Source: Candidatus Forterrea multitransposorum CG_2015-17_Forterrea_25_41
Lineage (GTDB): Archaea; Iainarchaeota; Iainarchaeia; Iainarchaeales; CSSED10-239
Reading direction: 5' to 3'
Assembly (NCBI GenBank): GCA_009392915.1
Contig: CP045477.1
Span: 96,001-160,000, forward strand
DNA: 64,000 nt
The position numbers and the translations under genes were made by a program. The stretch's first letter is position 1, and each line of letters opens with the position of its first letter. Positions 19,800 through 58,099 of the stretch are shown here, one piece after another. The notes beneath the pieces are model-generated. The model had not been told where the DNA came from. It made no database searches and worked only from the letters and a program-made list of their open reading frames with translations.

Positions 19800-20474
19800 G
19801 TGTTTGATATCGCAGATTTTCCAAAATTAGAATCTCCCTTTATAAGAAAAACTATTAATGAAAAATATATAGTAACTTTTGAGATTAATCCTAAATATAA
19901 ATGGATTTTTAATAGAAACATTGTTTTAGCTTCAGAAAAGATAGATGGAACTAATGTTTCAATAATTATAAATAAAGGAAAAATAATTGATATATACAAT
20001 AGAAAAAATAAAATTGAAATATTAGCAAATAAAAAATATTTTAGATTTATAGATGGTATCAACTATGCCTTATATAAAGAATTATTTAGAACAAATAAAT
20101 CTATGCAAATATTTGGAGAATTAATTGGGCCAACAGTTAATGGAAATCCCTATAATGAAGTAAGAAACATATGGGTGCCTTTTTCTTACTTAAAAGAAAA
20201 ATGTGAATTTAAATTTTGGAATAAATTTTTAGAAGAAGAAATTGACGGTAAAGATTTAAGCGAAAAAGAAATATTTGAAAAAACATCAAATATTTTTAAA
20301 AATCTTTGGAGTCTTTATTATAGAAGAAAAACAGGCGAAAAGATATTTGCTGAAGGAATTGTATTTTATAATAAAGAAACTGGAGAGATGTGTAAACTAA
20401 GAAGAGATATGTTTGATTGGTATGAAGGAATTAGTCATGATTTTTTTAAAGCTAAAGCAAAAAAAGATCTATAA
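19800..20474 (+). CDS. minimal ATP-dependent RNA ligase (Rnl2/PF09414-like adenylyltransferase domain only)
   Basis: Nucleotidyltransferase motifs in order: I EKIDGTN, III FGELIG, IV AEGIVFY, V CKLRR. 224 aa, no extra C-terminal domain. GTG start with GAGGTGG SD. Confidence 0.6.
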   Translation: MFDIADFPKLESPFIRKTINEKYIVTFEINPKYKWIFNRNIVLASEKIDGTNVSIIINKGKIIDIYNRKNKIEILANKKYFRFIDGINYALYKELFRTNKSMQIFGELIGPTVNGNPYNEVRNIWVPFSYLKEKCEFKFWNKFLEEEIDGKDLSEKEIFEKTSNIFKNLWSLYYRRKTGEKIFAEGIVFYNKETGEMCKLRRDMFDWYEGISHDFFKAKAKKDL

Positions 20475-20500
20475 AATGTAATTTTTATAAACATATTTTA

Positions 20501-20555
20501 TATTACTCACATCTGTGTATTACTCACAATCTTTTTAAATGTTTTGAGTAATACA
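20501..20555 (+). promoter_or_regulatory. direct and inverted repeats immediately upstream of the Fic gene
   Basis: TATTACTCACA at 20501-20511 and 20518-20528. TGTATTACTCA (20516-20526) is perfectly complementary to TGAGTAATACA (20545-20555), ending 5 nt before ATG 20561. TATA-like TTTTTATAAA at 20483-20492. Confidence 0.55.
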
Positions 20556-20560
20556 TATTT

Positions 20561-21496
20561 ATGAGTTATTTATCTAAACTTAAAAGAAATAATAAAACAT
20601 ATTATTATCTTGTAGAAAATATTCCTATATCTAAAGGTAGGCGAAAACAAATTAGAAAATATATAGGGACAATTAAACCTACAGATCAAAAATTATCTTT
20701 AGAACTATTAAAGTTTGAAAAAGAAATTACTTCTAAAAAAAAACAAATGCAAGGATTTACCTATTTAACTAAAGAAGAAATAAAAGAAGTAGATGAAATT
20801 AATTCAAATTTTTGGAAAAAATATAATAAATTATCAAAAACTGAGAGAGAAGAATTTTGGAATAATTTTATTGGAATTTTTGTTTTTAACACAAACTCAA
20901 TAGAAGGTTCAACTTTAACATTAAAGGAAGTTGAACTACTATTATCTGAAAATATATCTCCAAATAGACCTTTAGAAGATGTTTTAGAAGCAAAATCTGC
21001 AAAAAAAGCAATTAATTTTATTTTAAATTATAAATCTGATTTGTCAATAGATTTAATTACTAAAATTCATAAAATATATTTTAAAGAAAGCTTTCCAGAT
21101 ATAGCTGGTAAATTTAAAAGATTAAATAATAGAATAAAAGGATCAAAATTTGATACTACTCCAAAAGAACTAGTTTTAACTGATTTAAAAATACTTATAG
21201 ATAATTATAAAAAATTTAAAAAAGAATTACATCCAATAGAATTATCTGCTTGGTTGCATTGGTCTTTTGTAAAAATTCATCCTTTTCAAGATGGAAATGG
21301 AAGAATTTCAAGATTACTTATGAATTTTATACTTTTTAAAAATAAATATGCTTTAATAGATATTAAAACAAAAGAAAAACAAACATATTTTAATTCTCTT
21401 GAAAAATGTAATTATTTGAATAATGGAAAACCATTAGCTCAAAGATTAGTTAGAAGATTTAAAAAACAGTATAAAAATATATTTTCAAATTTATAG
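20561..21496 (+). CDS. Fic/DOC-family protein (AMPylase-type motif)
   Basis: Canonical Fic motif HPFQDGNGRISRLLMNF (HxFx[DE]GNGRxxR). Confidence 0.9.
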   Translation: MSYLSKLKRNNKTYYYLVENIPISKGRRKQIRKYIGTIKPTDQKLSLELLKFEKEITSKKKQMQGFTYLTKEEIKEVDEINSNFWKKYNKLSKTEREEFWNNFIGIFVFNTNSIEGSTLTLKEVELLLSENISPNRPLEDVLEAKSAKKAINFILNYKSDLSIDLITKIHKIYFKESFPDIAGKFKRLNNRIKGSKFDTTPKELVLTDLKILIDNYKKFKKELHPIELSAWLHWSFVKIHPFQDGNGRISRLLMNFILFKNKYALIDIKTKEKQTYFNSLEKCNYLNNGKPLAQRLVRRFKKQYKNIFSNL

Positions 21497-21525
21497 TTTT
21501 ATTAATTTTTTTTTAAAAGAAAAAA

Positions 21526-22272
21526 CTATTTATAACTTAAAAGCTTTTTAACATTTATATTCTCATTAAAAATCTCTTTTGACATTCCTTCAACATGTCC
21601 AGCACCAACAACAACCACAATGCTGTTAACATCTTCTTGTTGTAAGATCTGTCTAATACCATAAGCCATAAACTGATCTCTCTCATCAATCATTATTCTC
21701 TTTAAGGTCTTATGTCTTTTCATGAAAATTTCAAGAAGTTTATTTAGTTTGTCACCACTCTCTTCATCATCAACGCTTTTTAAAAGAACATTTACATCAA
21801 AGTCTTTACCAAGTTCTTTTCTTGTGTTAAATCCTCCAAAGAAAAGTCTAAATTTATCTCTAAAGGTTAAATTTTTTAAAAGTTTACTTAAAGTAAACTC
21901 TGCATCTCTATCCAGAAGTAAAAGCTTTGATTTATTCTCTTGAGCAGAAATAACTCCTTGCATCATTTCTTCTCCAGGAGTTGTATCAAATTTACTTGCA
22001 ATTTTTTTTTGAAATTTTTGTAAAACATAATATACTAAAAAAAGTCCAGGTTTTTTAGCTCTAAAAATATCTTTTAATCTAATCTCTCTTTTATTTTCTT
22101 TTGTCATCATGCTTTGAAATCTTTTTCTATCAAGCTCAATTCCAACAACATCAGGTTTTTCTAAATCAATAGTTTCTTTTACTTTTTCCTTGCTTTTTTT
22201 AGAAATATGTGCTGTTCCAACAATAATTATTTTTTTATTATTATAAAAAATAGTTTTAATCATAATTTTCAC
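21526..22272 (-). CDS. TraB/PrgY-family protein
   Basis: IIIVGTAHISKKS near the N-terminus and VVVVGAGHVEGM near the C-terminus are the two TraB-family (PF01963) signatures. Confidence 0.8.
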   Translation of the reverse strand: MKIMIKTIFYNNKKIIIVGTAHISKKSKEKVKETIDLEKPDVVGIELDRKRFQSMMTKENKREIRLKDIFRAKKPGLFLVYYVLQKFQKKIASKFDTTPGEEMMQGVISAQENKSKLLLLDRDAEFTLSKLLKNLTFRDKFRLFFGGFNTRKELGKDFDVNVLLKSVDDEESGDKLNKLLEIFMKRHKTLKRIMIDERDQFMAYGIRQILQQEDVNSIVVVVGAGHVEGMSKEIFNENINVKKLLSYK

Positions 22273-22380: not shown

Positions 22381-25300
22381 ATGAAAAATAAGATACTAAT
22401 AATTTTTTTATTTACAATTTTACTTTCAACTTTTATTTTTTCAGATCCTGTTGTAAAGATAAATGATAATTTAACAACATATACAAACAGTGATTCTGAA
22501 AACTTCTATGTTGAAGTAAGTAATACTGGAGATAATTGTGAAGTTGAATCTGATTTTATAAGTATTAATTTAAGTTCAGATGCAGCAAGTTCTTTTCCAT
22601 ATTTAATATACTGTAATCTTGAAAGAAATTATAGTGGTTATTTTTCAGTAGATTTTTCAACAAACACACCAACACCTCCAATACCAAATGTTTTAGTTAA
22701 TAATGAAGATACTGTTATTGCAGACTATAATGGGTTTACTGCTAATTTAGTAGTTGACACAATAAATACTATAACAGGAACTTTTGATTTAAATTCTGTT
22801 GATTCAGTTGTAAATAATTACTATAAAGGAGATGTTGAAGTTACTTCTTTAAGTTCTTTTTCAGATGCACATTCTGGTTTAAAAGAATATTACATTTATA
22901 TTGTTGAAGTTGATTCAGTAAATGACTATAGAGATGATTATTATAAGAGATTAATTGTAGATGTTAATGAAACTTCTATTGATTTAGGTACATCTACAAC
23001 TGTTTCTGATGGAAATTATTTTGTTTTAGTTGAAGCTTTAGATTATGCTGAAAATCTTGCAATACCTTCTCAAGTAATTTTAAATAAAAAAAATATGTAT
23101 GTTGATAATACAGCACCTCAAGTAACTTCTTTTAGTTTAGGAAGTTTTTCAGAAGGTACAACTTATTATGTTCCTTCAACAACTACTACTTTGACTTTAT
23201 TAATTGAAGATGATGGTGTAGGGGTAAGGAATGAACCTCTATATACACAAATAGATAGAGATAGTGTAAAGTTAGCAGATTATAATTCTATATTAGGCGG
23301 TTTCTTTTTTGATTTTACAACAGTTGATTATGATATTGATGGTTCATATGAGCTTGCAGCAACAGATCTTTTAGGTAATTTAAATGAAAAAACATTTTCA
23401 ATAATGATAGATGAAACTTCTCCAACAACTCCAACAATTTCAACAGTTACAAGAGCTGTAGATAATAATGTTACAATTTCAAATTGGGGTACTTCAACTG
23501 ATTCTGGAAGTGGTTTAAAAGAATACAAAGTCTATAGGTCAACTTCTTCTTTTACAGAAGTTTCAAATCAAGATTTAATTTGTACAGTTTCTGCAGCTGC
23601 TTCAAAAACTTGTCTTGATTCAACTTCAAAATCAGATGATACAAGATATTATTATGGTGTTACTGCAGTTGATAATGCAGGAAATAATAGTCCAGTTGTA
23701 ACTGCAAGCATAAAAACAGGTCCTGAACTTGATATTTATATTGATTTAGAAGATTCTGATTTTGTAAATACTGTTACTCCAGAGATAACTTTAGAGTATG
23801 GTTCTGATGTTAATGCTGTTAGATTTAGTTGTAATGCTTCAACTTTTACATCATGGGTTGAAGTTTCGGGAACTTCTGAGGTTTATGAAAGTTTTAATGT
23901 AACTTCTGGAAATGGATGTAATACAGATCAAGGAGATAAAATAATTTATGTTGAAGCAAGAAGTGAAGACGATCCTTATCTTATTACTAGAGAATCTTTT
24001 GAGTTTGAACTTGATTCAAAAGCACCAACAATACCTAGTAACATAGAAGTTTTAGAACAAGCAAATGGTTCTTTAAATATTTCTTGGACAAGCTCAACAG
24101 ATGTAAATGGTAGTGGTCTTGAAGAATACAGGATTTATTATTCAGAATCTGAGTCAGTTTCTAAATCCTCACAATATATGACTTCTTCAGATGAAGAGTA
24201 TATTTTTAATCCTAATGAAGATAAAACATTTTATTTTAAAATATCTGCAATTGATGAAGCATTAAATGAATCTGATCTTTCATCTATTGCTTCTGGAACT
24301 GCAAAAAGATTTGGACCTTCTTTTACTTTTAATGCAAGCCCAAAAAATTTAATTGATGATGTTTATTATTTAAAAAAAGGAAATGTTTTATTTACTATTA
24401 CAAGTAGTGAAGAATTAAAACAAACACCTATTATTAGACTTAAAATTGGTAATTCACCTTATAAATCAATTTCTGCAATTTATAGTAATTTAATTACAAC
24501 TTTTAATTATTCTTTAGAAGAAAGTGGAGATTCAATTTTAGAAATTACAGGTACAAATAATAATAATGAAACAACAACTGATACTTTTAATTTTATAGTA
24601 GATGCAGAAGTTCCAACTTTTACTGCTGACTATAATTTCTTTGAAGATACTAAATTATATGAATTTAAAATAAGTGATTTTTCAGATGATGTTTTCAGAG
24701 TTCAATATTTATTTAATAATGTTGAAGAAGTTTGTTTTATTGAAGATTCAAATAACAATTATCTTTGTTCACTTGATTCTACTCTTTATAAAGATGGTAA
24801 TCATAAAATGTATGTTTTAGTTTATGATAGAGCATTAAATTATGAAACTGAAATTATTTCTTTTGAAATAGATAATGTTGATGAAGCTTTAATTTTAAAA
24901 GAAAATTTAGTTGCTGAAATTAATACAAATATTTTTACAATTGAAGATAGAATTTCTTTCCTTCAAGCAATCTCTTTAGAAGTTTCTCAAGATGTTTTAG
25001 ATAAATTTTCTGAAGCTAAAGAAAAAGTTGTTCTTGCAAAATCTCTAGAAGATTCAAATAATTTTTCAGAAGCTGTAAATACTTATACTTCTGTAAATAA
25101 TTCTTTACTTGAGATATTAGAAGTTTTACCTACAGAAAATGTTTTAAAAACAAAAACTATTGAAATTGATCTTTTAGATAATTCTTTTGATCTTAATACA
25201 GTTATTTTGGATCAAAATATATTAACTGATAATTTGTCTTTTTATGATGTTAATAATCAAGACCTAAATTTTATATCAGTTTCAAGAGAATTTAGTGTTT

Positions 25301-25959
25301 TTGAAGTATCTGGTCAAAACTTTTATTCTAGTAATTTAATTTTTGTAAATGACTCTAATGTAGATAAAGTAATTTCTTTTATTGAAGTAATACCTAAAGA
25401 ATTTGAAAAATCTTCAGATAATATTTATTTTGATAGAAATATTGTTGTAATTGATAAAGATCCAATAATTCTTTATAATTTAGTAATTCCTAAAAATTCT
25501 TCTCTTACAACAAAATATATTAGTCAAACAGCAATTACAAGTTTTGATATTTTAACTAAATTTGATGCAATTGTTTACAAGTCTCCTCTTCTTTTAACTG
25601 GATCTGTAAATTTAGAAGATTTAAATTTTGAAAAACCTTTAATTGATAGTAAATCTTTATTTATGATAGCAGTTGTTCTTTTAATAATAATTATCTTACT
25701 TTTAGTAATCTGGATGGTGGCTTCTGGTCGTAAGAAAAAAGAAGATGTCTTTAAAGAAATGGAACCTAAGGATGCTATGAATAAATATCTTGGAAATAAA
25801 CTAAATAGTAATTCTCAAGAAAAATCTTCAACTGATTCTTCTTCATCTAAAACTTTAGAAGAAAAAGAAGAAGAGCATAAAAGTGATCTTGAAAAGAAAA
25901 AGAAGTATGATAGTAATTATGAGTTTATTTTAGATGCTGTTAAAAGAAGTAATAAATAA
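22381..25959 (+). CDS. large type-I membrane surface protein with Fn3-like repeats
   Basis: Signal peptide. Repeated modules containing [HG]SGL[KE]EY.[IV]Y ... A.D.A.N.S (three copies). C-terminal TM LFMIAVVLLIIIILLLVIWMV plus K/E/S-rich cytoplasmic tail. Confidence 0.6.
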   Translation: MKNKILIIFLFTILLSTFIFSDPVVKINDNLTTYTNSDSENFYVEVSNTGDNCEVESDFISINLSSDAASSFPYLIYCNLERNYSGYFSVDFSTNTPTPPIPNVLVNNEDTVIADYNGFTANLVVDTINTITGTFDLNSVDSVVNNYYKGDVEVTSLSSFSDAHSGLKEYYIYIVEVDSVNDYRDDYYKRLIVDVNETSIDLGTSTTVSDGNYFVLVEALDYAENLAIPSQVILNKKNMYVDNTAPQVTSFSLGSFSEGTTYYVPSTTTTLTLLIEDDGVGVRNEPLYTQIDRDSVKLADYNSILGGFFFDFTTVDYDIDGSYELAATDLLGNLNEKTFSIMIDETSPTTPTISTVTRAVDNNVTISNWGTSTDSGSGLKEYKVYRSTSSFTEVSNQDLICTVSAAASKTCLDSTSKSDDTRYYYGVTAVDNAGNNSPVVTASIKTGPELDIYIDLEDSDFVNTVTPEITLEYGSDVNAVRFSCNASTFTSWVEVSGTSEVYESFNVTSGNGCNTDQGDKIIYVEARSEDDPYLITRESFEFELDSKAPTIPSNIEVLEQANGSLNISWTSSTDVNGSGLEEYRIYYSESESVSKSSQYMTSSDEEYIFNPNEDKTFYFKISAIDEALNESDLSSIASGTAKRFGPSFTFNASPKNLIDDVYYLKKGNVLFTITSSEELKQTPIIRLKIGNSPYKSISAIYSNLITTFNYSLEESGDSILEITGTNNNNETTTDTFNFIVDAEVPTFTADYNFFEDTKLYEFKISDFSDDVFRVQYLFNNVEEVCFIEDSNNNYLCSLDSTLYKDGNHKMYVLVYDRALNYETEIISFEIDNVDEALILKENLVAEINTNIFTIEDRISFLQAISLEVSQDVLDKFSEAKEKVVLAKSLEDSNNFSEAVNTYTSVNNSLLEILEVLPTENVLKTKTIEIDLLDNSFDLNTVILDQNILTDNLSFYDVNNQDLNFISVSREFSVFEVSGQNFYSSNLIFVNDSNVDKVISFIEVIPKEFEKSSDNIYFDRNIVVIDKDPIILYNLVIPKNSSLTTKYISQTAITSFDILTKFDAIVYKSPLLLTGSVNLEDLNFEKPLIDSKSLFMIAVVLLIIIILLLVIWMVASGRKKKEDVFKEMEPKDAMNKYLGNKLNSNSQEKSSTDSSSSKTLEEKEEEHKSDLEKKKKYDSNYEFILDAVKRSNK

Positions 25960-27769: not shown

Positions 27770-27802
27770 AATTAATCATATTTTATTATATATATTAAAT
27801 AT

Positions 27803-27874
27803 AGCTCGGAGGAGATTCGAACTCCTGTCGTAAGATCCAGGGTCTTACATGCTTGGCCTCTACACTACCGAGCT
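27803..27874 (-). tRNA. tRNA-Gln (anticodon CUG) with unusual C at position 33
   Basis: Manual cloverleaf on the reverse complement. Acceptor AGCTCGG/CCGAGCT, D stem GTGT/GCAT, anticodon stem TAAGA/TCTTA with loop CCCTGGA, T arm AGGAG-TTCGAAT-CTCCT. No encoded CCA. TATA-like box about 25 nt upstream. Confidence 0.8.
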
Positions 27875-29566: not shown

Positions 29567-31015
29567 CTAATTAACTATTAGTTTTGGTATTGGTAAGTTT
29601 AATTGAGGAAAATAATTATTTATTTTCTCAATAATTTTTTTTTCTTTTACAATTACTTTTTCTTTGTCTATTAAATATTTATTTTCATTTACATCTATTT
29701 TCTTAATGGTTTCAAGCTTCAAATATTTTATTGATTGAGCAAGTAAAGAATCATAAAACTTAGTATTTTTATGTTCTATAAACTTAGGTATCTCTTCAAT
29801 AAGGTCATTTATAAGTTTGTATTCTGTTAGATATTGTATAAACATAGGATTTTGTTCTAAATTGTTCTTGAAAGAATAATTATAGTTAAAAGAATTACTT
29901 AAATTTATAGAAGTTTCTAAATATTTTAATCTCTTTAAATATTCTTTTATTTTAATAGATAAGAAAGATTCTTTCTTTAAACAATACCATTTGATTTCAT
30001 CTAAGTTATCAATTATTTCAATTTCTTCTTCTGAAACTAAATTTACTGCATCTATTAAAGGAATACTTGCAAAATCTCCTTTGTAAAAAGGTCCTGTTGG
30101 CATTTCTTTTAAACCATTATTTTTTTTGAAATTAATTCTATTTTCTTTATTTATATTCTCTTGATGGAATTGTTCATATGCCCATTTTTGATCTTTTGAA
30201 ATAAAATAGAATCCTTGTTTTTTAAATCTTACTTTAACAATTGAATTTGATAAAACATTTATATCTAAATAGTTTTTTGGTTTACAACAATCACAATTTA
30301 AAGTATCATGCCCTATATTGTAAAAATCTTTTGTTAAAAGATATGGCCAGATATTTGAAAAATCCATTTTAATTCCTTGTCTTATGTTTTTTTCTTTTTC
30401 TAAGTATTCTATACTAATTTTATTGTTTAGCATCATTTTATTTTCAAAATATAAGTTTTCAAAGAAATTATTTAAAATTTCTTGATTATTAATATTTTTA
30501 ATTTTTATTTTTAATATGTTACTTAAAAGTAGTTTTTTAGTTAAGTTTTCAATTAACTTTAATTGCTCTTCTTTTAAGAAAGGATTTATATATTTTTTAA
30601 CAATTGAACTTATATTGTTATTTTCTATTTTTTTAATTCTTGTTTTTGAAACAATTATAAATAAATCATAATAACTCCATTCTTTCTCAATTAAATACTC
30701 TCTTTCAATATCTAAGATTAATATGTTTTTAGAAGTAGATATAGATAATATTTTATAAATCTTATTTAATGTTTCTTTATTTTTTGCAATTACTTTAATT
30801 TTATTTTTTTCAATTTTTTCTATATTTACTTCTCTTTTAAAATCAGATAATAGCTTTTGTACTACTTCTTTTGGAAGGTCAATATAAAAATAAGGGTTAA
30901 ATTTTTCCTTATAAACAAAATCATACTTATTGCTATAAGGATCTTTTGAAAAATAGCTTATAATTCTTTGTTTTTCTTCTTCATACACGCATTCTGTTAA
31001 ATATAGTTGTTCCAT
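29567..31015 (-). CDS. family-B DNA polymerase-like protein, truncated and probably catalytically inactive
   Basis: By-eye collinearity with remembered archaeal PolB. FNPYFYIDL (cf. F[RK]PY[IF]YAL), LDIEREYLIEKEW, MDFSNIWPYLL..HDTLNC (cf. motif A DFxSLYPSII..SPDTL), INLSNSFNYNYSF (cf. motif B KxLANSFYGYYGY). No DTD motif C (only FYDSLL). 482 aa versus about 775 aa, with the exonuclease region largely missing. Confidence 0.4.
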   Translation of the reverse strand: MEQLYLTECVYEEEKQRIISYFSKDPYSNKYDFVYKEKFNPYFYIDLPKEVVQKLLSDFKREVNIEKIEKNKIKVIAKNKETLNKIYKILSISTSKNILILDIEREYLIEKEWSYYDLFIIVSKTRIKKIENNNISSIVKKYINPFLKEEQLKLIENLTKKLLLSNILKIKIKNINNQEILNNFFENLYFENKMMLNNKISIEYLEKEKNIRQGIKMDFSNIWPYLLTKDFYNIGHDTLNCDCCKPKNYLDINVLSNSIVKVRFKKQGFYFISKDQKWAYEQFHQENINKENRINFKKNNGLKEMPTGPFYKGDFASIPLIDAVNLVSEEEIEIIDNLDEIKWYCLKKESFLSIKIKEYLKRLKYLETSINLSNSFNYNYSFKNNLEQNPMFIQYLTEYKLINDLIEEIPKFIEHKNTKFYDSLLAQSIKYLKLETIKKIDVNENKYLIDKEKVIVKEKKIIEKINNYFPQLNLPIPKLIVN

Positions 31016-31196: not shown

Positions 31197-32831
31197 ATGG
31201 CAATTAAAAAAAATATTTTAACTTTAGAGCTCAAATTATTAATATTTTCTCTAATTTCTTTATTTGTCCTTAAAATATTTTATATTAAACAATTAGATAT
31301 AATCTTAATTACAACTTTTTTTGATATTTTAATTTTTACATTTATTTTTTCAATTTTTATTTTATTTAAAAATATTTTTTCAAAAGTTTTATTTCATATT
31401 ATTTATGTTTTAAATTTTATTCTTTTTTCTTTTTTCTACATTTTCTATTATGATGTATCTCAAAGAGGGCTTTTCATTTCTAAAATAAAATTAGATGCAA
31501 TTACTTTTGTTTTAAAAAATATTATTTCTTTTAAATTAATATTAATTGTATTTCTTGCTTTATTTTTTATCTATTTTTTATCTTTTTTTATTTTAAAATA
31601 TAAAAAGTTTTTATTAAATTCATTTACTTTAAAATTAGTTTCTGTGATTTCTCTTTTAATATTTTTATTTCTAGTATTATTATTTAATCTAAATTATAAT
31701 CCTTATGCTGATGTTGTTTTAAATTTTAAAAATAGTTTTAGTTATATTCCTTTAGAAGATAATTCTAAAGATTTATCTATTTTTCCAGTAAACAATACAT
31801 TATATCCTGAAAATGAATTAGATATTAAATATAAAAAAATAATTCTGCTTATTGGTGAAGAATGGATGTTTTCTAGCTTTTTGAAAGATAGTAATTCTTT
31901 AGATAATAGTTTTTTTAAAAAAACTGAAAATAATACTCATTTTTATTCAAATTATTACACCACAAATCAAGATAGTAGAACTGCTATTTACACTTTACTT
32001 ACAAGTCAATTTATTCCTTTTGAAGCATATTTAGATTCTACTTATTCAATATATCTTGAAAAGATTAAAACAGTTCCAAGTCTTGTAGATTATTTTAATG
32101 ATAATAATTATTCTTCTTTCTTTGTAGTTTCTTCAATTGAACAACCAGATATTGCAACTCCTTTTAATTGGACTGAAATTGTAACTTTAAAAGAAGATGT
32201 TTATAATAGTAATAATTATTATTGTTCTTCACTTTTTACATATGAAACTTCTTGTGAAGATCTTTCTATTTTAGATGATGTGAAAAAAAAATTAATTTCT
32301 GATGAAAATATATTTTTAGTTCAAGAGTTTATTTATGGTCATAGCTACAAACATATTATAGATACTAAAAAATCAAGAACTCAATATTATAATAATTATT
32401 TTAATTCATTATATGATTTTTTAGAAAAAGAATCCTTGTTAAAAGATACTTTAATAATCATTACTTCAGATCATGGTTCTAGAGCTTACAATGAAATGGT
32501 TTCTCCTGAAGGATATCATATTCCTTTTTTAGTAATTTCAAACAATTTAGATTATAAAGATGATGATTCTCTTTTATCTCATTTAAATTTTAAAGATATT
32601 CTTTATAAATATATCTTAGGTATAGATTATATACCAAACAATAAATCTATAATGTTTACTGGTGGAACAAACAGTGATCTTTTAGGTTTTATTACAAATA
32701 AAAATGATTTTGGAATAATTAATTCTTCTAAATCATTATTAATAAATTATAATAAAGAAGATTTATCTATTAAAGAGAAATCTCAAAATCATTATAGTTA
32801 TTATAATTTTTTAAAAAATAATTTTAAATAA
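31197..32831 (+). CDS. membrane-bound sulfatase-superfamily protein, LtaS/phosphoglycerol-transferase-like
   Basis: About five N-terminal TM helices followed by an extracytoplasmic domain. That domain has IILLIGEEWMFSSF, TNQDSRTAIYTLLTS and IIITSDHGS, which resemble alkaline-phosphatase/sulfatase fold motifs as in LtaS/OpgB/EptA. Confidence 0.55.
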   Translation: MAIKKNILTLELKLLIFSLISLFVLKIFYIKQLDIILITTFFDILIFTFIFSIFILFKNIFSKVLFHIIYVLNFILFSFFYIFYYDVSQRGLFISKIKLDAITFVLKNIISFKLILIVFLALFFIYFLSFFILKYKKFLLNSFTLKLVSVISLLIFLFLVLLFNLNYNPYADVVLNFKNSFSYIPLEDNSKDLSIFPVNNTLYPENELDIKYKKIILLIGEEWMFSSFLKDSNSLDNSFFKKTENNTHFYSNYYTTNQDSRTAIYTLLTSQFIPFEAYLDSTYSIYLEKIKTVPSLVDYFNDNNYSSFFVVSSIEQPDIATPFNWTEIVTLKEDVYNSNNYYCSSLFTYETSCEDLSILDDVKKKLISDENIFLVQEFIYGHSYKHIIDTKKSRTQYYNNYFNSLYDFLEKESLLKDTLIIITSDHGSRAYNEMVSPEGYHIPFLVISNNLDYKDDDSLLSHLNFKDILYKYILGIDYIPNNKSIMFTGGTNSDLLGFITNKNDFGIINSSKSLLINYNKEDLSIKEKSQNHYSYYNFLKNNFK

Positions 32832-32838
32832 ATTTATC

Positions 32839-34143
32839 ATGGCCTTTAAATTATCAAAAAGAATGTTTTTTTTTATAATCTTTCTATTTATCTTTATTTT
32901 TTATTATATTTCTATTAAAGGAAGTTTTGTAGTTTTTTTAATAATGTCTTTTATTTTTTTATATTTAATAGTTTTAATAATTATTTTATATGTTCTTTAT
33001 CCAAATATTGCAAAAGAGAGGGCTTTTCCTAAAAAAGCACCAACTGTTGCAGTAGTAACTTATGCTTTTAATAATTTTCAACCTGTAAAAAGAACTATTG
33101 AAGCTTTATTAAAATTAGAGTATCCTATCCCTTTTAAGGTTTATGTAATAACTGACGGAACTTGTATTTTTTTAAAAAACTTAAAAGGTGTAAAACAAAT
33201 TGTAATTGATAAAAAATATTTTAAAAAATCAAAAAATACTAAATCTATTGTGATGAATGAAGGTTTAAAATATATTAAAGATGAAAATATTTTTTGTGTT
33301 GATGGAGATACTATAGTTGATAGTAAGGCTTTAAAAAGAATGACTGGTTTTTTAGATGAAAAACAAGTAGTTGCTGTAAATGGAATTTTAGTTCCTGAAA
33401 ATAGAAGTAGTTTTTGGGAAAAAGTTCAAGTTATAGAATATAGTCTTAATTGGGGTATTTATCAAAGAATTTTATCTGCAATGGATTCTATTAATATTCC
33501 TATTGGTGCAATGTTTCTAATGAAAAAGAAAGTATTTGATCAATTAGGAGGCTATTCTACAAACAATTTTGTTGAAGATAAAGAATTAGGTTATAGAATT
33601 ATTAAAGCTGGTTATAAGATAAGATGTTGTGAAGTTGCATATGGTTTTACAGAAACTCCTAAAACATTAAATGGCTGGTATAAACAAAGGAAAAGATGGT
33701 CTAGAGGAGAGCTTGCAACTATATATGAGCATAGAGATGTTTTATTTAATTTTAAATATAGTGTATTTGGAATGTTTGTTTTACCTTTTACTTTTTTTGT
33801 TCAAACTGTAGGTGTTGCTTTTATTTTTACATATATTTTTATTTATTTAAGAAGATTTATTATTTTTATTTATTTTTTAATTTCTGAATTTTTAAAAAAC
33901 TCTATTTTATTATATCCTAATTTTAGTAGTATTGTGCTTCCATCTACAATTTATGTTATTTTCTTATCTTTAATAATTTTCTTGATATATGCTTTATTTG
34001 CATTTAAAATAACAAAATTTAACTTAAATTACAAATATATTCTTCCTTTTGCATTTTTTATATTTATATATACCTATTTATTAATTTCTGTATATTTAAT
34101 ATCTATAATACAAGAGTTTTTAGGTTTTGAAAACAAATGGTAG
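32839..34143 (+). CDS. processive family-2 glycosyltransferase (QxxRW synthase type)
   Basis: N-terminal TMs, GT2 core (VAVVTYAFNN.., DGDT, VEDKELGYR), QRKRWSRGE (QxxRW) motif and C-terminal TM bundle. Architecture of PgaC/IcaA/NodC/cellulose-synthase-like enzymes. Confidence 0.8.
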   Translation: MAFKLSKRMFFFIIFLFIFIFYYISIKGSFVVFLIMSFIFLYLIVLIIILYVLYPNIAKERAFPKKAPTVAVVTYAFNNFQPVKRTIEALLKLEYPIPFKVYVITDGTCIFLKNLKGVKQIVIDKKYFKKSKNTKSIVMNEGLKYIKDENIFCVDGDTIVDSKALKRMTGFLDEKQVVAVNGILVPENRSSFWEKVQVIEYSLNWGIYQRILSAMDSINIPIGAMFLMKKKVFDQLGGYSTNNFVEDKELGYRIIKAGYKIRCCEVAYGFTETPKTLNGWYKQRKRWSRGELATIYEHRDVLFNFKYSVFGMFVLPFTFFVQTVGVAFIFTYIFIYLRRFIIFIYFLISEFLKNSILLYPNFSSIVLPSTIYVIFLSLIIFLIYALFAFKITKFNLNYKYILPFAFFIFIYTYLLISVYLISIIQEFLGFENKW

Positions 34144-34153
34144 TTGAAATGAT

Positions 34154-34852
34154 ATGAATAAAAAAGATAAAAAATTTATTAAAAATAAAACTTTTAACAA
34201 TAATGTATTATTATTTGCATTCTTAATAATTGTGGTGTTATTTATTATTGTCTTTTCTGCAATTAATTTTTATGATAGTCATAAAAGAAAAGTAATTGAA
34301 GACGATTATAATATTTTACAACAACAGATTATTTTAAATGATCTTTATAAAAAATATTTAGATGAAACTAATTCTGAAAAATGTACTGTTTTAAAAAATC
34401 AATTAGATTCTTATCTTAATATTAATAGTGAACTTTACTTAAGACTTAAAAAAATAAATAGAAATGCAATTGTTGAATCAGATGATAGAACTAAACTTTT
34501 ATTTGTTTTAACAAATATTAATCTTTGGCTTCATTATAACTCTATTGAAAAAGAGTGTGGATATAATAAAGAAAGAGCAATTTTATATTTTTATCCTGAG
34601 TTTCAAGATTTTAGTGTCGAAAAAGCAGAATCTGATGCTAGAACTTTATTTTTTGCAGAAAAATTAGAAAGATTAACTAAAGAGTGTAATTTAAATTCAA
34701 TTGCTCTTCCTTATGTTGATTATATTCCTATTTTAAATCAAATAATTTCTGATTATAATATTAATTCATCTCCATCAGTATATATTAATGGAAAAGTATA
34801 TTATGATGTAAATTTAGATGAATCTTTCTTAAAAGAGATTGGATGTAGATAA
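34154..34852 (+). CDS. N-terminally anchored extracytoplasmic protein, unknown function
   Basis: Single N-terminal TM (VLLFAFLIIVVLFIIVFSAINF). C-terminal ..SSPSVYINGKVYY resembles the end of DsbA-like folds, but no CxxC is present. Confidence 0.35.
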   Translation: MNKKDKKFIKNKTFNNNVLLFAFLIIVVLFIIVFSAINFYDSHKRKVIEDDYNILQQQIILNDLYKKYLDETNSEKCTVLKNQLDSYLNINSELYLRLKKINRNAIVESDDRTKLLFVLTNINLWLHYNSIEKECGYNKERAILYFYPEFQDFSVEKAESDARTLFFAEKLERLTKECNLNSIALPYVDYIPILNQIISDYNINSSPSVYINGKVYYDVNLDESFLKEIGCR

Positions 34853-34864
34853 AAGGGATAACTT

Positions 34865-35605
34865 TTGGCTTTACAGCAAACACATGTTATTTTTTTAAAA
34901 GAAATTATAGAGCTACATCCTAATCTTTTAAAAAACTATAATAAAAAATCGCTTTATTATGGAGCTGTTTATCCAGATATTTTTTATATTAGGCTACTTA
35001 AAACTAGACCTAATTTTTCACTTTATCTTCATGAAAATAAAAATATTATAAAAATAGGTGAAGAACTTTATAATAATTCATCTAATATTTCTGAAAGATC
35101 TTTTTCAATTGGTTTTTTATCTCATTTTTTTCTAGATAAAAGAATACATGGTTATTTAGAGAAAATTGGATTTATAGATGGCCCTGAACATTTATCTCTT
35201 GAGTTTTATTTATATATGTTTTTAGATAAAAAAACAAAAGTTAGTGTTTCTAAAAATCCAAACAAATTATTAAAAAAAATATTTAAATTTTATTTTAATA
35301 AACAAAATTATTTTTTTATTCCAAACATATTAATTAAAAGATTATTTTTGTTTGTTTGTAATTATATAATTAAAGAGACTATTGATATTAAGTATAAAAA
35401 AATAAAAAAAGGTAATTTTTTTAAAAATAATTTACTTAAAATCTCTTATTATTTTGCTTTTAATTCTTATGGTTACAGTGTATCTAAATTATTTAATCCA
35501 GATTTTAAATTTTTAGAAAAACATTTGCCTTTTCTTTTAAAAGAATATAATCTGGCAAAAAAAGATTTTATTGATTTTTTAAATAATGGTAATTTTTATG
35601 GTTAA
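34865..35605 (+). CDS. zinc-dependent phospholipase C-like family protein (tentative)
   Basis: ..THVIFL.. near the N-terminus, YYGAVYPDIFY and GFLSHFFLDKRIHGYL resemble the H / G.xxPD / HxxxDxxxH pattern of PF00882-like proteins. TTG start. Confidence 0.4.
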   Translation: MALQQTHVIFLKEIIELHPNLLKNYNKKSLYYGAVYPDIFYIRLLKTRPNFSLYLHENKNIIKIGEELYNNSSNISERSFSIGFLSHFFLDKRIHGYLEKIGFIDGPEHLSLEFYLYMFLDKKTKVSVSKNPNKLLKKIFKFYFNKQNYFFIPNILIKRLFLFVCNYIIKETIDIKYKKIKKGNFFKNNLLKISYYFAFNSYGYSVSKLFNPDFKFLEKHLPFLLKEYNLAKKDFIDFLNNGNFYG

Positions 35606-36077
35606 AATATTATTTGTTTGTAGTGGGAATGTTTTTAGAAGTATGTGTGCTAAATATTGTTTAGAATATTTTTTAGCTAAAAATAATATTAAAAATATTT
35701 CTGTAGATTCTGCAGGTATTTCTGTAACTTCTAAAAAACCACAAAATATTGCTTTAGAAGTTAAAGAGTTACTTTTTAAAAAAGGAATAGATGTTTCAAA
35801 GCATTTATCTAAGAATGTTTCAAAAGTTGATTTAAAATCTTTTGATTTAGTAATCTCTATGGGTTATAATCATAAAAAATATTTAAAAGAAAAATATGGT
35901 ATTTCTTCTGTTTTATTTAATAAAGTGTGTTACGGTGTTAATTATCCTGTTTATGATAATAATGAAATTTTAAAAGAATATAAAGGTTTTAGAGGTAAGA
36001 TTTATAATATAGAAGTTGTTAAAAAAATTTATTCAGATATTAAATTTTTTCACAAAAATTATAAAAAATTCATTTAA
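35598..36077 (+). CDS. low-molecular-weight protein-tyrosine phosphatase / ArsC-like
   Basis: P-loop MVKILFVCSGNVFRS (CX5R[ST]). ATG 35598 overlaps the upstream stop (ATGGTTAA); track start is 35586. Confidence 0.8.
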   Translation: MVKILFVCSGNVFRSMCAKYCLEYFLAKNNIKNISVDSAGISVTSKKPQNIALEVKELLFKKGIDVSKHLSKNVSKVDLKSFDLVISMGYNHKKYLKEKYGISSVLFNKVCYGVNYPVYDNNEILKEYKGFRGKIYNIEVVKKIYSDIKFFHKNYKKFI

Positions 36078-36705
36078 TTTTTTTTAAACAAATTTTGTTT
36101 ATTGGGCATTTTTCACAATTAGGATTTCTTGGAAAACAAATGTTTTGTCCTAAGATAACAAATAAATAGTTTGTATCTATCCAAAATTTTTTAGGAAGTT
36201 TATTTCTTAAAACCATTTCTGTTTCTAAAGGGTTTTTTGTTTCAATATAGCCTATTCTATTAAATATTCTGTGTACATGTGTATCTACACAAATAGCTGG
36301 TATTTTATATGATACTGCAATTACTAGATTTGCAGTTTTTCTTCCTACACCTGGAAGAGTAATTAATTCTTCTATGGTTCTTGGTACTTTATTATTAAAA
36401 TCTTCTTTTAATTTTTTTGCAAGTAACTTTAAGTTTTTAGCTTTAGTTTTATAAAATCCAACAGGATATAATAATTGTTCTAATTTTTCAATTTTAATTT
36501 TTATTAAGTCATCTGTATTCTTTATTTCTTTAAATAAATTATCACAAACTTTTGCAGTAATTTGATCTTTTGTTCTTGCTGAAAGCATTGTTCCAATTAA
36601 TACATAAAAAGAATTTTTACTTTTAATATCTATTTGTTCTGCAAGAGGAATTGTGTACTCTTTTAACTCTTTTTCAAGAATTTTATATATTTTTTCAATA
36701 TCCAT
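36070..36705 (-). CDS. nth: endonuclease III (DNA glycosylase/AP lyase)
   Basis: HhH-GPD LPGVGRKTANLV, catalytic-Lys region, VDTHVHRI, and C-terminal 4Fe-4S cluster CFPRNPNCEKCPINKIC. Confidence 0.9.
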   Translation of the reverse strand: MDIEKIYKILEKELKEYTIPLAEQIDIKSKNSFYVLIGTMLSARTKDQITAKVCDNLFKEIKNTDDLIKIKIEKLEQLLYPVGFYKTKAKNLKLLAKKLKEDFNNKVPRTIEELITLPGVGRKTANLVIAVSYKIPAICVDTHVHRIFNRIGYIETKNPLETEMVLRNKLPKKFWIDTNYLFVILGQNICFPRNPNCEKCPINKICLKKIK

Positions 36706-36791: not shown

Positions 36792-38186
36792 ATGAACAAA
36801 AATTTAACAAAATTATTTTTCTGGATATTTGGTATAATATTCAGTGGAATTTTTTATTTTTTCTCAAAAACATCTACTTCTTTATCATATATTAATGAAA
36901 TTAAGTTTCTTCCATACGTAATAATGTTAATAATTATTTTGTTATTTTTCTTAATTGGTATTTTATTTTCGAAAATACCTTTTTTTTGGTATTCAAAATT
37001 TAGAAAATCCAATCTTAATGAAGTTTTATCTGAAGTTGATGTAAAAAAAACTGAAGAAAATATTGATCAATTAATTGATAAATTAAAAGATGCTATAAAA
37101 AATATTAGTAAAAGTAATTATTCTCAAATATCTATAAATTATTTAATAAAGAATGTAGGTATTTCAAAAGAAAGTGCAGATGGAATTATTAAAAATATAA
37201 AGAGATTAAAAAGATTAAAAACTTTATCAATAGCTTTAGGAATTATAATTTCTTTAGGTTTATATTTTTTTGTAAGTAGTTTACCAGTATTTAATATTAT
37301 TCCAAATTATGTGTTTATAATATCTGCAGTAATTATTTTTCTTTTATTTGTTTTAGAAGGTTATTTAATTACAAGAATGCCTGATTCATTTTATTTAAAT
37401 TTAATTAATATAAATAAAGAAAAAATATTAGAAGTTAAAAGAGAATCTTTAGAAAAAGAAGAAAAGTTAAATAATTATAATCAAAAACAAAAAGGTTTGT
37501 TAGATAATATTCAAAAAGCAACTAAATTTCTTTTATCTCAAGATGTAAGTAAAGAAGCAATTTCTAATTTCTTTAGTAAATATGATGTTGATCAGTCTAC
37601 AATTTCAAAATTTATTGAACTTTCAGAAAAAGAATTAAATATTGAAAAGAATAATTCTGGAAAAGTTTTATTTAATGCAAAATCAGATTCTGCAATAAGA
37701 TTAACTCTTTCTAAAATACACGATAGTTTTGAACAAATTAATCAAATATATAATGAAGTTTCAAAACTTCAAAAAGAAGTAAGTGATATTTCTCAAAGAC
37801 AAGAAAAACTTGAAAAAATGTCAACTATTAGTGTTTCAAAAGAAGTTAAAAAACTTAAAAAAGAACCAATAATGTCAAACAAGTATAAGGATTTAAAAAA
37901 AGCAGATCCTAAAGAAATTAAAGAATTGTTAGATAAAAGAAATGAAGAATATGATAAACTTATAAGTTATTTATATCACTTGTTCTTACCATCTGTTGAA
38001 ACTTCTTCTCAAAATGATGTTTTTTCTACATTAGTTTATTATGGTTATCCTTATGAGATTGTAGAAGATGTTTTACAAAAGTTTAAAGATAAAAAAATTA
38101 ATTTCGGGAAAGATAAAAAAGTATCTTTCTCTGAAAAATTAGTAAATAAAATTAATGGTTTTTATGAATTATTTGCCTCTAAATAA
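36792..38186 (+). CDS. uncharacterised 4-TM / coiled-coil protein, paralog A (see 49583-50956)
   Basis: Two TM hairpins separated by a helical loop, a long K/E-rich helical region, and a small C-terminal domain. Clear by-eye paralogy with the 457-aa ORF at 49583. Confidence 0.6.
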   Translation: MNKNLTKLFFWIFGIIFSGIFYFFSKTSTSLSYINEIKFLPYVIMLIIILLFFLIGILFSKIPFFWYSKFRKSNLNEVLSEVDVKKTEENIDQLIDKLKDAIKNISKSNYSQISINYLIKNVGISKESADGIIKNIKRLKRLKTLSIALGIIISLGLYFFVSSLPVFNIIPNYVFIISAVIIFLLFVLEGYLITRMPDSFYLNLININKEKILEVKRESLEKEEKLNNYNQKQKGLLDNIQKATKFLLSQDVSKEAISNFFSKYDVDQSTISKFIELSEKELNIEKNNSGKVLFNAKSDSAIRLTLSKIHDSFEQINQIYNEVSKLQKEVSDISQRQEKLEKMSTISVSKEVKKLKKEPIMSNKYKDLKKADPKEIKELLDKRNEEYDKLISYLYHLFLPSVETSSQNDVFSTLVYYGYPYEIVEDVLQKFKDKKINFGKDKKVSFSEKLVNKINGFYELFASK

Positions 38187-40860: not shown

Positions 40861-40952
40861 GTAATATTAGTGTATAGTTACTTTTTTAAAACAATATTTA
40901 GTATAATTATTTATATACAGTAATTTAAATTATAGTGTTATATGATACAAAC

Positions 40953-41489
40953 ATGAAACAAACAAAGCTATCTGACTTTAAGCTTAAAAAACCTAGTTTT
41001 TTTAATAGTTTAATAGTTTATAAGAAAACTTCTTTTATCTATAAAATCTATTATTGGTTAATGGACTTTAAGTTGTTCTATAAAAATAAAAAAACTCTTA
41101 AATATCTAGTCATAGGTCTTTCAGGAGAAATTATTGATTTTTCATTTTTACTTTTATTTACAGAAGTTTTTAATATTTTTTATCTATTATCAGCTGTTAT
41201 TGCATATTTTTTTGCTATAATAAATAATTTCTTTTTAAATGTGATATTTACTTTTAAATATAAACCTTTAAATAAATCTGAATTAATTGGTGCTTTATTT
41301 AATTATTTTCTAGTCTCTTTATTTGGTTTTATATTAAGTGTTTTATTGATATTTGTTTTTGTTGAAGTCTTAAATATTTATTATTTAATTGGTAAAGTCT
41401 TTTCTTCAATAATTGTTTTTATTATGATATATACTGGTCATAATTTTGTGTTTTCAAGAAAAAAATTATCAATTTGTAAATTCAATTAA
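40953..41489 (+). CDS. GtrA-like membrane protein
   Basis: Four TM helices with YLVIGLSGEIIDFSFL..F and ..NNFFLN..FTFK typical of GtrA (PF04138). ATG 40953 (track GTG 40935). Confidence 0.65.
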   Translation: MKQTKLSDFKLKKPSFFNSLIVYKKTSFIYKIYYWLMDFKLFYKNKKTLKYLVIGLSGEIIDFSFLLLFTEVFNIFYLLSAVIAYFFAIINNFFLNVIFTFKYKPLNKSELIGALFNYFLVSLFGFILSVLLIFVFVEVLNIYYLIGKVFSSIIVFIMIYTGHNFVFSRKKLSICKFN

Positions 41490-46203: not shown

Positions 46204-46238
46204 TTTTTTTCACAATTAGTTTTTTTTTAAAAAATTAT

Positions 46239-46310
46239 AGTCCGGAGGAGATTCGAACTCCTGTCGCCAGGTTCAAAGCCTGACATGCTTGGCCACTACA
46301 CTACCGGACT
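46239..46310 (-). tRNA. tRNA-Gln (anticodon UUG)
   Basis: Manual cloverleaf on the reverse complement. Acceptor AGTCCGG/CCGGACT, anticodon stem TCAGG/CCTGG, loop CTTTGAA, T arm AGGAG-TTCGAAT-CTCCT. Near-identical D and T arms to the tRNA at 27803. Confidence 0.9.
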
Positions 46311-46443
46311 ATTTTATTTAGCAAAGAAATATTTTCTTTTCTATTAATATCTAAAAAAGGAAGGGTTTTTATTTCTTTATTAAGTTAAATATTTAATAAT
46401 AGAAATATTTTTATATACTATTCTTTATAAATTAATATATAAA

Positions 46444-46518
46444 GGGAGTGTAGCTTAGTCTGGTTGGAGCACTCGACTGATAATCGAGAGGCCGCAGGTT
46501 CGAATCCTGCCATTCCCA
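46444..46518 (+). tRNA. tRNA-Ile (anticodon GAU)
   Basis: Acceptor GGGAGTG/CATTCCC, anticodon stem CTCGA/TCGAG, loop CTGATAA, T arm GCAGG-TTCGAAT-CCTGC, discriminator A. TTTATAAATT box about 20 nt upstream. Confidence 0.9.
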
Positions 46519-46559
46519 CTTTCTATTTTTATATAGATTTTAAAAAAAGAGGATAATTT

Positions 46560-49450: not shown

Positions 49451-49525
49451 GGAAGTGTAGCTTAGTCTGGTTAGAGCATTGGTCTTATACACCAAAGGTC
49501 GCAGGTTCGAATCCTGCCATTTCCA
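49451..49525 (+). tRNA. tRNA-Ile (anticodon UAU)
   Basis: Acceptor GGAAGTG/CATTTCC, anticodon stem TTGGT/ACCAA, loop CTTATAC (UAU), T arm GCAGG-TTCGAAT-CCTGC. D and T arms almost identical to tRNA-Ile(GAU) at 46444. Confidence 0.85.
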
Positions 49526-49582
49526 CTTTTTTTTAAAAATAAAGCTTTATAAATCTAATTAACTACTATATATTAGATAATT

Positions 49583-57595: not shown

Positions 57596-58099
57596 ATGTT
57601 AAATAATAAAGTTAATGCTGTAATTGACTCTTCATTTTGGATAAACTTGAGTAGAGTTGATCTTACAAAATATTTATTAGATTATTTTACTATTTATTCT
57701 ACCATAAAAGTAAAAGAAGAACTTTTTGATTTTTACGAAAGAAGAGGTTATTTTTCAAAAGATTCTTATCTTTTTAAGTTATATTTAGAAGCAGATTTTA
57801 TTATTTTAAAAGACCTTAAAGAAATTACTTTAAAAATAAAGCAAGAATTGTCAAAAGATTCTGGAGAGTTATATTCTGCTGCTCTTTTAAAGGAAATTGG
57901 AGGTGTTTTTTTAACAGATGATAAGGGGGCACTTAATTTTTGCAAAAATAATAATCTTTTTGCAATTACTTCTGTTTATTTAATAGTTAGACTTTATAAG
58001 GATAATTTAATATCAAAAGAAAAAGCTAAATTTTCAATTATGCGATTAAAAGGAAAAATAAGTAATATACATATACAATCTGCTTTAAAGGATTTATAG
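57596..58099 (+). CDS. PIN-like nuclease, DUF3368-type toxin
   Basis: N-terminal VIDSSFWINL (acidic PIN site), later ..GELYSAALLKEIG..FLTDDKGA... Directly followed by a UPF0175 gene, the usual partner of DUF3368. Confidence 0.6.
   Translation: MLNNKVNAVIDSSFWINLSRVDLTKYLLDYFTIYSTIKVKEELFDFYERRGYFSKDSYLFKLYLEADFIILKDLKEITLKIKQELSKDSGELYSAALLKEIGGVFLTDDKGALNFCKNNNLFAITSVYLIVRLYKDNLISKEKAKFSIMRLKGKISNIHIQSALKDL

Follow-up and report, generated by a model that had tools for sequence, protein, structure and literature searches.

Five closely packed genes at positions 31197–36077 (+ strand) of a 64-kb stretch from the archaeon Candidatus Forterrea multitransposorum (contig CP045477.1; this stretch is the window) raise the question of whether they form one pathway for a surface polymer and, if not, which of them belong together. 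The original prediction, made from the letters of the window, described a bacterial-style envelope polymer cluster of an LtaS-like transferase, a processive family 2 glycosyltransferase (GT2), a membrane-anchored exoprotein, a phospholipase C (PLC)-like protein and a low-molecular-weight protein tyrosine phosphatase (LMW-PTP). These genes are termed g1 to g5. The unit that emerges from the present analysis is smaller: the real conserved core is g2 plus g3, g1 is accessory, and g4 and g5 are loose neighbours. For the picture as a whole, in which the locus serves an Iainarchaeota (DPANN) archaeon as a synthase-dependent module for a surface glycan, the chances are about even.

The five open reading frames (ORFs) are co-directional and tightly packed, as had been described, and the Joint Genome Institute gene calls on the source contig, the 661-kb metagenome contig 3300025035 Ga0210011_1000003, agree exactly with them. 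The intergenic gaps from g1 to g4 are 7, 10 and 12 nt, and g4 and g5 then overlap. This overlap is 20 nt with the longest g5 ORF; the predicted 8 nt holds if g5 starts at its second ATG (M5). All of the motifs quoted earlier are present, and the matches to PF00884, PF13641, PF00882 and PF01451, the families proposed for a profile search, are every one over the curated Pfam gathering cut-off. The setting contains archaeal housekeeping genes (Alba, a geranylgeranyl-reductase-like gene, GatE, the thermosome, archaeal ribosomal proteins and initiation factors). Among public genomes, the nearest are metagenome-assembled genomes (MAGs) named 'Candidatus ainarchaeum sp.' or 'Candidatus Iainarchaeum archaeon' in the DPANN phylum Iainarchaeota, in keeping with the DPANN origin that had been suggested.

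The glycosyltransferase g2 and its partner g3

Gene g2 (positions 32839–34143, + strand) encodes a PgaC-like membrane GT2. It matches PF13641 (83 bits) and PF13632 (67 bits), both over the cut-off, and PF13506 (47 bits). In NCBIfam the best match, TIGR03937 (PgaC_IcaA), spans the full length with 119.6 bits. Judged by hydropathy, the glycosyltransferase domain is flanked by two transmembrane (TM) helices on the N-terminal side and about four on the C-terminal side. The protein carries the DGDT and QRKRWSRGE motifs, and D106, D155xD157, E246-D247 and Q283-R284-x-R286-W287 are invariant in the 24 homologues from which a family profile was built. These D, DxD, ED and QxxRW motifs line up with those of BcsA.

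The g2 profile aligns end to end with E. coli PgaC (7–426 against 3–419 of 441) at 165 bits and gives 95 bits with E. coli BcsA; OpgH, also an E. coli reference, has no HMMER match. Searched against the PDB, the profile finds BcsA at the top (95 bits, 3.6e-26), followed by hyaluronan synthase (HAS) and chondroitin synthase; ceramide glucosyltransferase (26qs) gives 48 bits and chitin synthases 43 bits. The matches to PgaC (to 419/441), BcsA (354), chitin synthase (402–409) and likewise HAS extend past QxxRW into the TM region. That to ceramide glucosyltransferase ends at position 289, i.e., at QxxRW. The match to the dolichol-phosphate sugar synthase DPMS (5mlz) is 22.8 bits and covers the N-terminal half only. 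Judged by motifs and profiles, g2 is very probably a processive-type, membrane-integrated GT2, and the earlier choice of a QxxRW enzyme over a dolichol-phosphate sugar synthase was sound (PgaC 165 bits vs DPMS 23). A dolichol-phosphate or undecaprenol-phosphate sugar synthase (DPMS, GtrB) is ruled out by the QxxRW motif together with these scores. A PgaC/IcaA orthologue is also ruled out, since g2 is below the equivalog cut-off and has low identity to PgaC (both figures are given below), and there is no PgaD-type partner. The product may be based on N-acetylglucosamine.

Gene g3 (34154–34852, + strand) lies directly downstream and has no Pfam family match. It has a single TM segment at about residues 18–40, oriented N-in, with a K-rich N-terminus, and this order of K-rich N-terminus and single TM helix places the stalk and the thioredoxin domain outside the cell. 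The AlphaFold2 model (predicted local distance difference test score, pLDDT, 79) has, after the TM helix at the N-terminus, three long helices and then a C-terminal domain at 141–228 with the topology beta-alpha-beta-alpha-beta-beta-alpha. Foldseek matches in the PDB are nearly all thioredoxins, although they are weak (E 0.007–0.1; probability 0.8–0.97 in the top dozen, then lower). The modelled fold thus identifies g3 as a thioredoxin-fold protein and not a generic exoprotein. The TM anchor and outward topology of the original prediction stand; its generic exoprotein does not, and it had missed the status of g3 as a partner of the GT2.

An exhaustive search with the g3 profile finds 84 cluster representatives in 1.84 billion proteins, with full-length matches of about 210–235 aa. 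The CxxC active site is kept in about 58 of 83 distant representatives and is lost in the window clade and in about 20 others. In g3 of the window this site is missing and reads FQDF. In the orthologue at locus L007 the first helix opens with CNEC, and this protein matches PF00085 with an E of 5e-4, under the gathering score. The CxxC was probably ancestral in the family, and its loss in the window clade suggests that g3 has a structural and not a redox role there. Four other cysteines, C77, C135, C178 and C231, are conserved, which fits an extracellular protein.

The pairing of the two genes was followed in 12 distinct close DPANN lineages (the window included), with hidden Markov model scans for all five genes. 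In every one of the 12, g2 and g3 are adjacent, and they often overlap by 4–16 nt. Identity in relatives is 71–77% for g2 and 66–72% for g3, and just 45–52% for g1. The arrangement extends well beyond this clade. Three distant g3 homologues (P0088, P0104 and P0092) on contigs of 49–61% GC are each directly 3' of a 411–437-aa GT2; these GT2s score 324–344 bits against the g2 profile, and the third, which is partial, 126 bits. At L024, L027 and L037, which come from a metagenome scan with the GT2 alignment, a g3 homologue is also immediately 3' of the GT2. The pair is therefore present in 6/6 distant contexts (L049, L051, L053, L024, L027 and L037; GC 29–61%), and a g3 homologue is directly 3' of a PgaC-like GT2 in 18/18 readable contexts, close and distant. 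Among the matches listed in the metagenome scan, most are distant GT2s with 21–32% identity, used as an outgroup. GT2s that score under about 230 bits have no g3, and more distant ones are without any of the five partners. It is thus highly likely that g2 and g3 are a functional pair. The GT2s with a thioredoxin-like partner have a conserved basic-Trp ending at the C-terminus (NKW, QTW, RKW or ARW; g2 at 34126–34143, and L049, L051 and L053).

The closest known arrangement is that of PgaC-PgaD and IcaA-IcaD. Gene g2 is colinear with PgaC, i.e., it has two N-terminal TM helices, the GT2 domain, the C-terminal TM helices and the D, DxD, ED and QxxRW motifs, and in both systems a small membrane partner is encoded immediately 3' of the synthase. 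However, g3 is a single-pass protein with a thioredoxin fold and has no similarity to PgaD (hhalign probability 1.3%), and g2 itself is a distant relative. The locus is also without a PgaB/IcaB deacetylase or a PgaA porin (PF01522, the family of PgaB/IcaB-type deacetylases, is absent from the window), no cyclic di-GMP machinery is seen, and the host is an archaeon. A second likeness is one of analogy only. Ost3/Ost6 (Tusc3/MagT1) are membrane-anchored, extracytoplasmic thioredoxin-fold CxxC subunits of the eukaryotic oligosaccharyltransferase, so that there, too, a membrane-anchored thioredoxin-fold protein is an accessory subunit of a membrane glycosyltransferase. The partner in that case is a GT-C enzyme (STT3) and not a GT2, the TM topology is different, g3 of the window has no CxxC, and no homology is shown.

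The LtaS-like gene g1 and the proposed glycan module

Gene g1 (31197–32831, + strand) encodes a membrane enzyme of LtaS/OpgB/PbgA type. It matches PF00884 with 44 bits, over the cut-off, and contains the motif IIITSDHGS. The AlphaFold2 model (pLDDT 81.6, the catalytic domain mostly >90) has five TM helices (10–29, 33–55, 60–82, 112–131 and 142–163) followed by an outward alpha/beta domain. The order of Foldseek matches in the PDB is VP1736 (3lxq), full-length PbgA/YejM (6xlp and 6v8q, rank 3–4), LtaP/LtaS (4uop, 4uor and 2w5r) and MCR-1; sulfatases rank behind the LtaS/PbgA-type folds. Five residues are invariant in 14 homologues: E221, S260, H382, D425 and H426. In the model E221 is at the end of beta-1, S260 at the N-terminus of helix 260–269, and D425-H426 just after strand 418–424, which fits the canonical metal and nucleophile positions of the alkaline phosphatase superfamily, with S260 as the predicted nucleophile. 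The LtaS-like assignment made earlier agrees with this architecture of five TM helices, alkaline-phosphatase fold and invariant residues. There are only 17 clusters of g1 homologues, all from DPANN-like sources.

Two groups of bacterial systems resemble g1. LtaS/LtaP, VP1736 and PbgA/YejM (COG1368-type) share the five TM helices, the extracellular sulfatase-fold domain and, as in LtaS, the invariant metal and nucleophile positions. The differences are that g1 has Ser where LtaS has Thr, that it has a conserved Cys pair (C343/C353), that identity is 10–16%, that it keeps the DH unlike YejM, and that no glycolipid-anchor or flippase genes are present at the locus. The second group is BcsA plus BcsG and OpgH plus OpgB, where a QxxRW GT2 is likewise found with a polytopic protein bearing an outward alkaline-phosphatase-fold domain, and in BcsG the nucleophile is Ser, as is predicted for g1. 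The BcsG/OpgB domain moves a lipid head group onto a glycan. In contrast to these proteins, to which g1 has no significant sequence match, the donor of g1 would be an ether lipid, and the gene is optional in its clade. The model and its neighbours suggest that g1 is an LtaS/OpgB/PbgA-type enzyme with predicted transferase activity.

The following mechanism is proposed. By analogy with PgaC, BcsA and HAS, g2 would polymerise a UDP-sugar on the cytoplasmic face and export the beta-glycan, as it grows, through a TM channel of its own. Gene g3 would provide an obligate co-subunit of the synthase with its thioredoxin fold facing outwards, in the niche that PgaD, IcaD or BcsB takes in bacteria without being homologous to them. 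With Ser260 and a metal site of E221, D425 and H426, the g1 enzyme would take the phospho-alcohol head group off an ether phospholipid of the membrane and, outside the cell, attach it to the glycan as it emerges; BcsG acts in this way on cellulose, and OpgB on periplasmic glucans. That g1 modifies the product of g2 is a possibility somewhat short of even. It is supported by L007, where two g1 paralogues are directly 5' of g2-g3 and the other neighbours differ (TFIIB, DsbA, T2SSE/F and MacB/FtsX). The three genes g1-g2-g3 have thus travelled together into a different context.

Other genes beside the pair point to a theme of extracytoplasmic decoration and are counted as support for it. GT-C enzymes (GT87-like or PMT_2) are located beside the GT2-thioredoxin-like pair at L014:6249–7769, L011:10014–11582 and L051:8746–10164. 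A GT87-like enzyme fills the position of g1 in L014/15, and one follows g3 in L011. A GtrA-family gene (40935–41489) is about 5 kb downstream of the locus in the window, and likewise in most relatives. The recurrence of GT-C and GtrA genes suggests alternative extracellular decoration of the same product. The 506-aa protein in the place of g1 in L014 was considered as a divergent g1 and rejected (BLASTP E at least 5); it is the GT87-like GT-C enzyme. A DHH-family phosphoesterase gene is immediately upstream of the GT2 in some relatives, after g1 or GT87 (L012:7005–7886, L014:5363–6256 and L021:7628–8527); the window has no such gene there.

Several findings weigh against the proposed module. 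The 119.6 bits of g2 fall far under the TIGR03937 equivalog cut-off of 422.3, and pairwise identity to E. coli PgaC is just 25%. The sugar, the linkage and the choice between polymer, oligomer and lipid acceptor are unreadable from the g2 sequence. The g1 profile has no hmmsearch match to OpgB, BcsG or EptA (hhalign probability <3%), and BcsG is not in the top 50 fold matches; the similarity is not significant, so the subfamily placement of g1 comes from fold and architecture. The sole sequence-level PDB match to g1 is 3lxq, in the region around the DH (E 3e-6). Furthermore, g1 is missing in half of the close lineages and in all distant ones, and is frameshifted in two: within the TM region at L005:6359–7992 / L017:7026–8659, and with loss of ETxCED at L048:1–2114. 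These frameshifts represent either a pseudogenised accessory gene or homopolymer sequencing error. The patchy distribution and the frameshifts make the link between g1 and the GT2 product circumstantial. A 605-aa protein of L048 (P0023), which appears as an in-frame sulfatase plus GT2 fusion, was rejected as Rosetta-stone evidence. It is a pseudogene or an assembly artefact, because the C-terminus of the frameshifted g1 is joined to the middle of TM1 of the GT2 and ETxCED is gone. Finally, the flanking genes (Alba, a 482-aa ORF, HhH-GPD, PmbA/TldD, GtrA and GatDE) are syntenic in most relatives, and with such wide shared synteny adjacency at most of the close loci is not independent evidence.

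This last point leads to the alternative that g2-g3 alone are functional, and that g1, g4 and g5 are unrelated neighbours clustered by a compact, strand-biased genome and by shared synteny. The + strand carries 45/52 genes of the window, coding density is about 87%, and short gaps are common, with 9/39 same-strand pairs separated by 12 nt or less. Gene g1 is found in 6/12 lineages (adjacent in the window, L018, L005/L017 and L048; in L007; and nearby in L021), g4 follows g3 in 4/12 (the window, L012/13, L014/15 and L048), and g5 is near the module in 3/12. All three are encountered only in the DPANN clade, and the distant GT2-thioredoxin-like pairs have no g1, g4 or g5 adjoining them. The order in L021 is g1-DHH-g2-g3-[HhH-GPD, opposite strand]-g5, so that a DHH gene intervenes between g1 and g2, and g5 is past an opposite-strand gene and outside the transcription unit. 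On the other hand, the g1 paralogues of L007 are directly 5' of g2-g3 among neighbours that otherwise differ, the outward-facing topology of the g1 membrane enzyme suits a secreted glycan, and no other run of successive gaps of 12 nt or less in the window is as long as the four in g1-g5. This packing exceeds chance only moderately for a genome of this kind. Chance neighbours are, on balance, an unlikely explanation, although the most probable of the alternatives.

The same counts bear on the single five-gene cluster of the original prediction, which does not hold, as only g2-g3 is invariant (12/12). The expectation about gene order in related genomes is borne out in part: g1-g2-g3 move together to L007, but the full five-gene order is found elsewhere only in the near-identical L016 (97%). 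A first gene from a non-transferase family together with a GT2 of dolichol-phosphate type, or genes never syntenic elsewhere, had been named beforehand as outcomes that would speak against the cluster. Neither was observed: the GT2 is not of that type, and the genes are syntenic elsewhere in part.

A teichoic-acid-like lipoglycan is a further, improbable reading. Here g2 would make a glycosyl-archaeol anchor, on which g1, acting as LtaS, would polymerise glycerol phosphate from archaetidylglycerol. LtaS and LtaP are among the nearest folds of g1, g2 also matches GT21/ceramide glucosyltransferase (the PF13506 and 26qs scores above), and processive GT21/GT2 glycolipid synthases exist in bacteria. 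However, g2 favours the polymer synthases PgaC and BcsA, and only matches of that kind pass QxxRW into the TM region. Half of the lineages dispense with g1 but keep g2-g3, and there is no LtaA-type flippase in the cluster.

The chances are lower again that g1 is not a transferase, but a non-catalytic envelope sensor or regulator of PbgA/YejM/LapC type, or a scavenging hydrolase (phosphatase, phosphodiesterase or sulfatase). The high rank of the PbgA/YejM structures is in its favour, as is the finding that LapC alone of the E. coli references gives any signal with the g1 profile (15.7 bits; hhalign probability 48%). However, g1 keeps E221, S260 and the invariant D425-H426, and E. coli LapC/YejM has GR in place of this DH, which rules out a YejM-like pseudo-enzyme. 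A formylglycine sulfatase is also ruled out, since there is no C/S-x-P-x-R motif in g1 (S260-R-T-A-I, with no Pro/Arg at +2/+4). In addition, a five-TM anchor is typical of lipid-donor transferases, and soluble scavenging hydrolases are not built in this way.

A recent horizontal transfer of an exopolysaccharide operon from bacteria, which the label 'bacterial-style' had implied, is very improbable: the characterised homologues (PgaC, LtaS, PLC and LMW-PTP) are all bacterial, but homologues over about 35% identity all come from DPANN or uncultured archaeal MAGs, the GC content of the locus (19–22%) is in line with the 20–29% of the remaining window (about 23% overall), the flanking synteny is conserved in relatives, the GT2-thioredoxin-like pair also occurs in archaeal-looking contexts of 49–61% GC, and the accessory genes of bacterial pga, ica or bcs systems are missing.

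A glycan module with g2-g3 at its core and g1 as an accessory gene would be of interest for several reasons. DPANN archaea live attached to host cells, and to our knowledge almost nothing is known about their surface glycans. A conserved synthase-dependent module would be a concrete candidate for a matrix or attachment polymer, and the GT2 plus thioredoxin-like pair would bring a new type of accessory subunit to processive glycan synthases, well beyond DPANN. The optional LtaS-type gene poses the question of whether head-group transferases act on ether-lipid membranes. A bolder proposal, which is offered tentatively and is rather unlikely in its entirety, is that archaeal PgaC-like synthases are obligate two-subunit enzymes with a thioredoxin-like co-subunit that was ancestrally redox-active, and that this DPANN lineage has the first archaeal LtaS/BcsG-type transferase, which decorates the product with ether-lipid head groups that are possibly host-derived. 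If true, the symbiont surface would bear an archaeal equivalent of phosphoethanolamine-cellulose or phosphoglycerol-glucans, although this would be no change of paradigm unless shown biochemically. Taken singly, the enzymes belong to known families, of which they are divergent members. The apparent novelty lies in the obligate thioredoxin-like partner and in the combination of a synthase with an LtaS-like enzyme in an archaeon; neither a GT2-thioredoxin-like pair nor an LtaS-type enzyme in DPANN is described in the literature searched. PgaC/BcsA-like GT2s have been noted in DPANN and Methanosarcina, without partners (review, PMC10086821).

The downstream genes g4 and g5

Gene g4 (34865–35605, + strand) has a TTG start and belongs to the Zn-dependent PLC / nuclease P1 superfamily. 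It matches PF00882 with 48 bits (cut-off 26.8 bits) and has no match to PDB sequences. The histidine and aspartate motifs noted earlier are present (H7, PD38 and H87xxxD91xxxH95), and H7, D38, H56, H87, D91, H95, H109 and E113 are invariant in 4 homologues. The spacing of these His, Asp and Glu residues appears to match that of the tri-zinc ligands of PC-PLC / nuclease P1. The protein has no signal peptide and no TM segment, and its N-terminus (MALQQTH) is without the N-terminal Trp zinc ligand of secreted PLC. With no signal peptide or TM segment, g4 is predicted from sequence to be a cytoplasmic tri-zinc phosphodiesterase-like protein. The scavenging of host lipid head groups, which had been envisaged for the cluster, has no support as an activity outside the cell, since g4 carries no export signal.

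Gene g5 (35586–36077, + strand) encodes an LMW-PTP / YwlE-like phosphatase fold (PF01451, 64 bits). The P-loop, C12-SGNVF-R18-S19, is intact and has the C-x5-R-S signature reported before; across 4 homologues neither the P-loop nor D124 varies, and D124 sits in DN, not DP. The PDB matches (E 1e-10 to 1e-4) are LMW-PTPs, YwlE and YfkJ among them. The 3' end overlaps by 8 nt with a convergent HhH-GPD gene (36070–36705). The regulation of polysaccharide export by LMW-PTPs in bacteria had been pointed out, but for control of the Wzb-Wzc type there is no BY-type (bacterial tyrosine) kinase or Wzc among the ORFs of at least 90 aa in the 64-kb window, which is the part of the 661-kb genome that was scanned. 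In the window there is also no Wzx/Wzy, deacetylase or nucleotide-sugar gene.

Both genes are probably co-transcribed with the module here. They are not conserved parts of it, and no specific role can be assigned to them.

Other features of the window

A 482-aa ORF with no Pfam match is located at 29567–31015 (- strand), divergent from g1. Nearly all of the syntenic DPANN relatives have a gene of 482–488 aa there as well (L001, L005, L009 and L012–L015). Further ORFs without a significant Pfam family are at 49583–50956 (457 aa), 57596–58099 (167 aa), 60142–62544 (800 aa) and 36792–38186 (464 aa). The last of these, with several hydrophobic segments, follows closely after the cluster. Adjacent genes at 19800–22272 encode an RNA-ligase-domain protein, a Fic/DOC-domain protein and, on the opposite strand, a TraB/PrgY/GumN-family protein.

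The window has tRNA-Ile(UAU) at 49451–49526 alongside tRNA-Ile(GAU) at 46444–46519. AUA codons are decoded in most archaea by a tRNA with a modified CAU anticodon, so that a tRNA-Ile(UAU) would be unusual. Both tRNA-Gln isoacceptors are also present (CUG at 27802–27874 and UUG at 46237–46311).

Two large proteins of the window have features of the cell surface. The first (4562–7531, 989 aa) has a class III, archaeal type IV pilin-like signal peptide and CHB_HEX_C, Fn3_assoc and InlB B-repeat-like domains; it is possibly a surface adhesin or a pilus-associated glycan-binding protein. The second (22381–25959, 1192 aa) combines Ig-like and fn3 domains with a C-terminal region that is hydrophobic. 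Relatives also have it upstream of the locus, and it is a candidate for an S-layer or surface protein.

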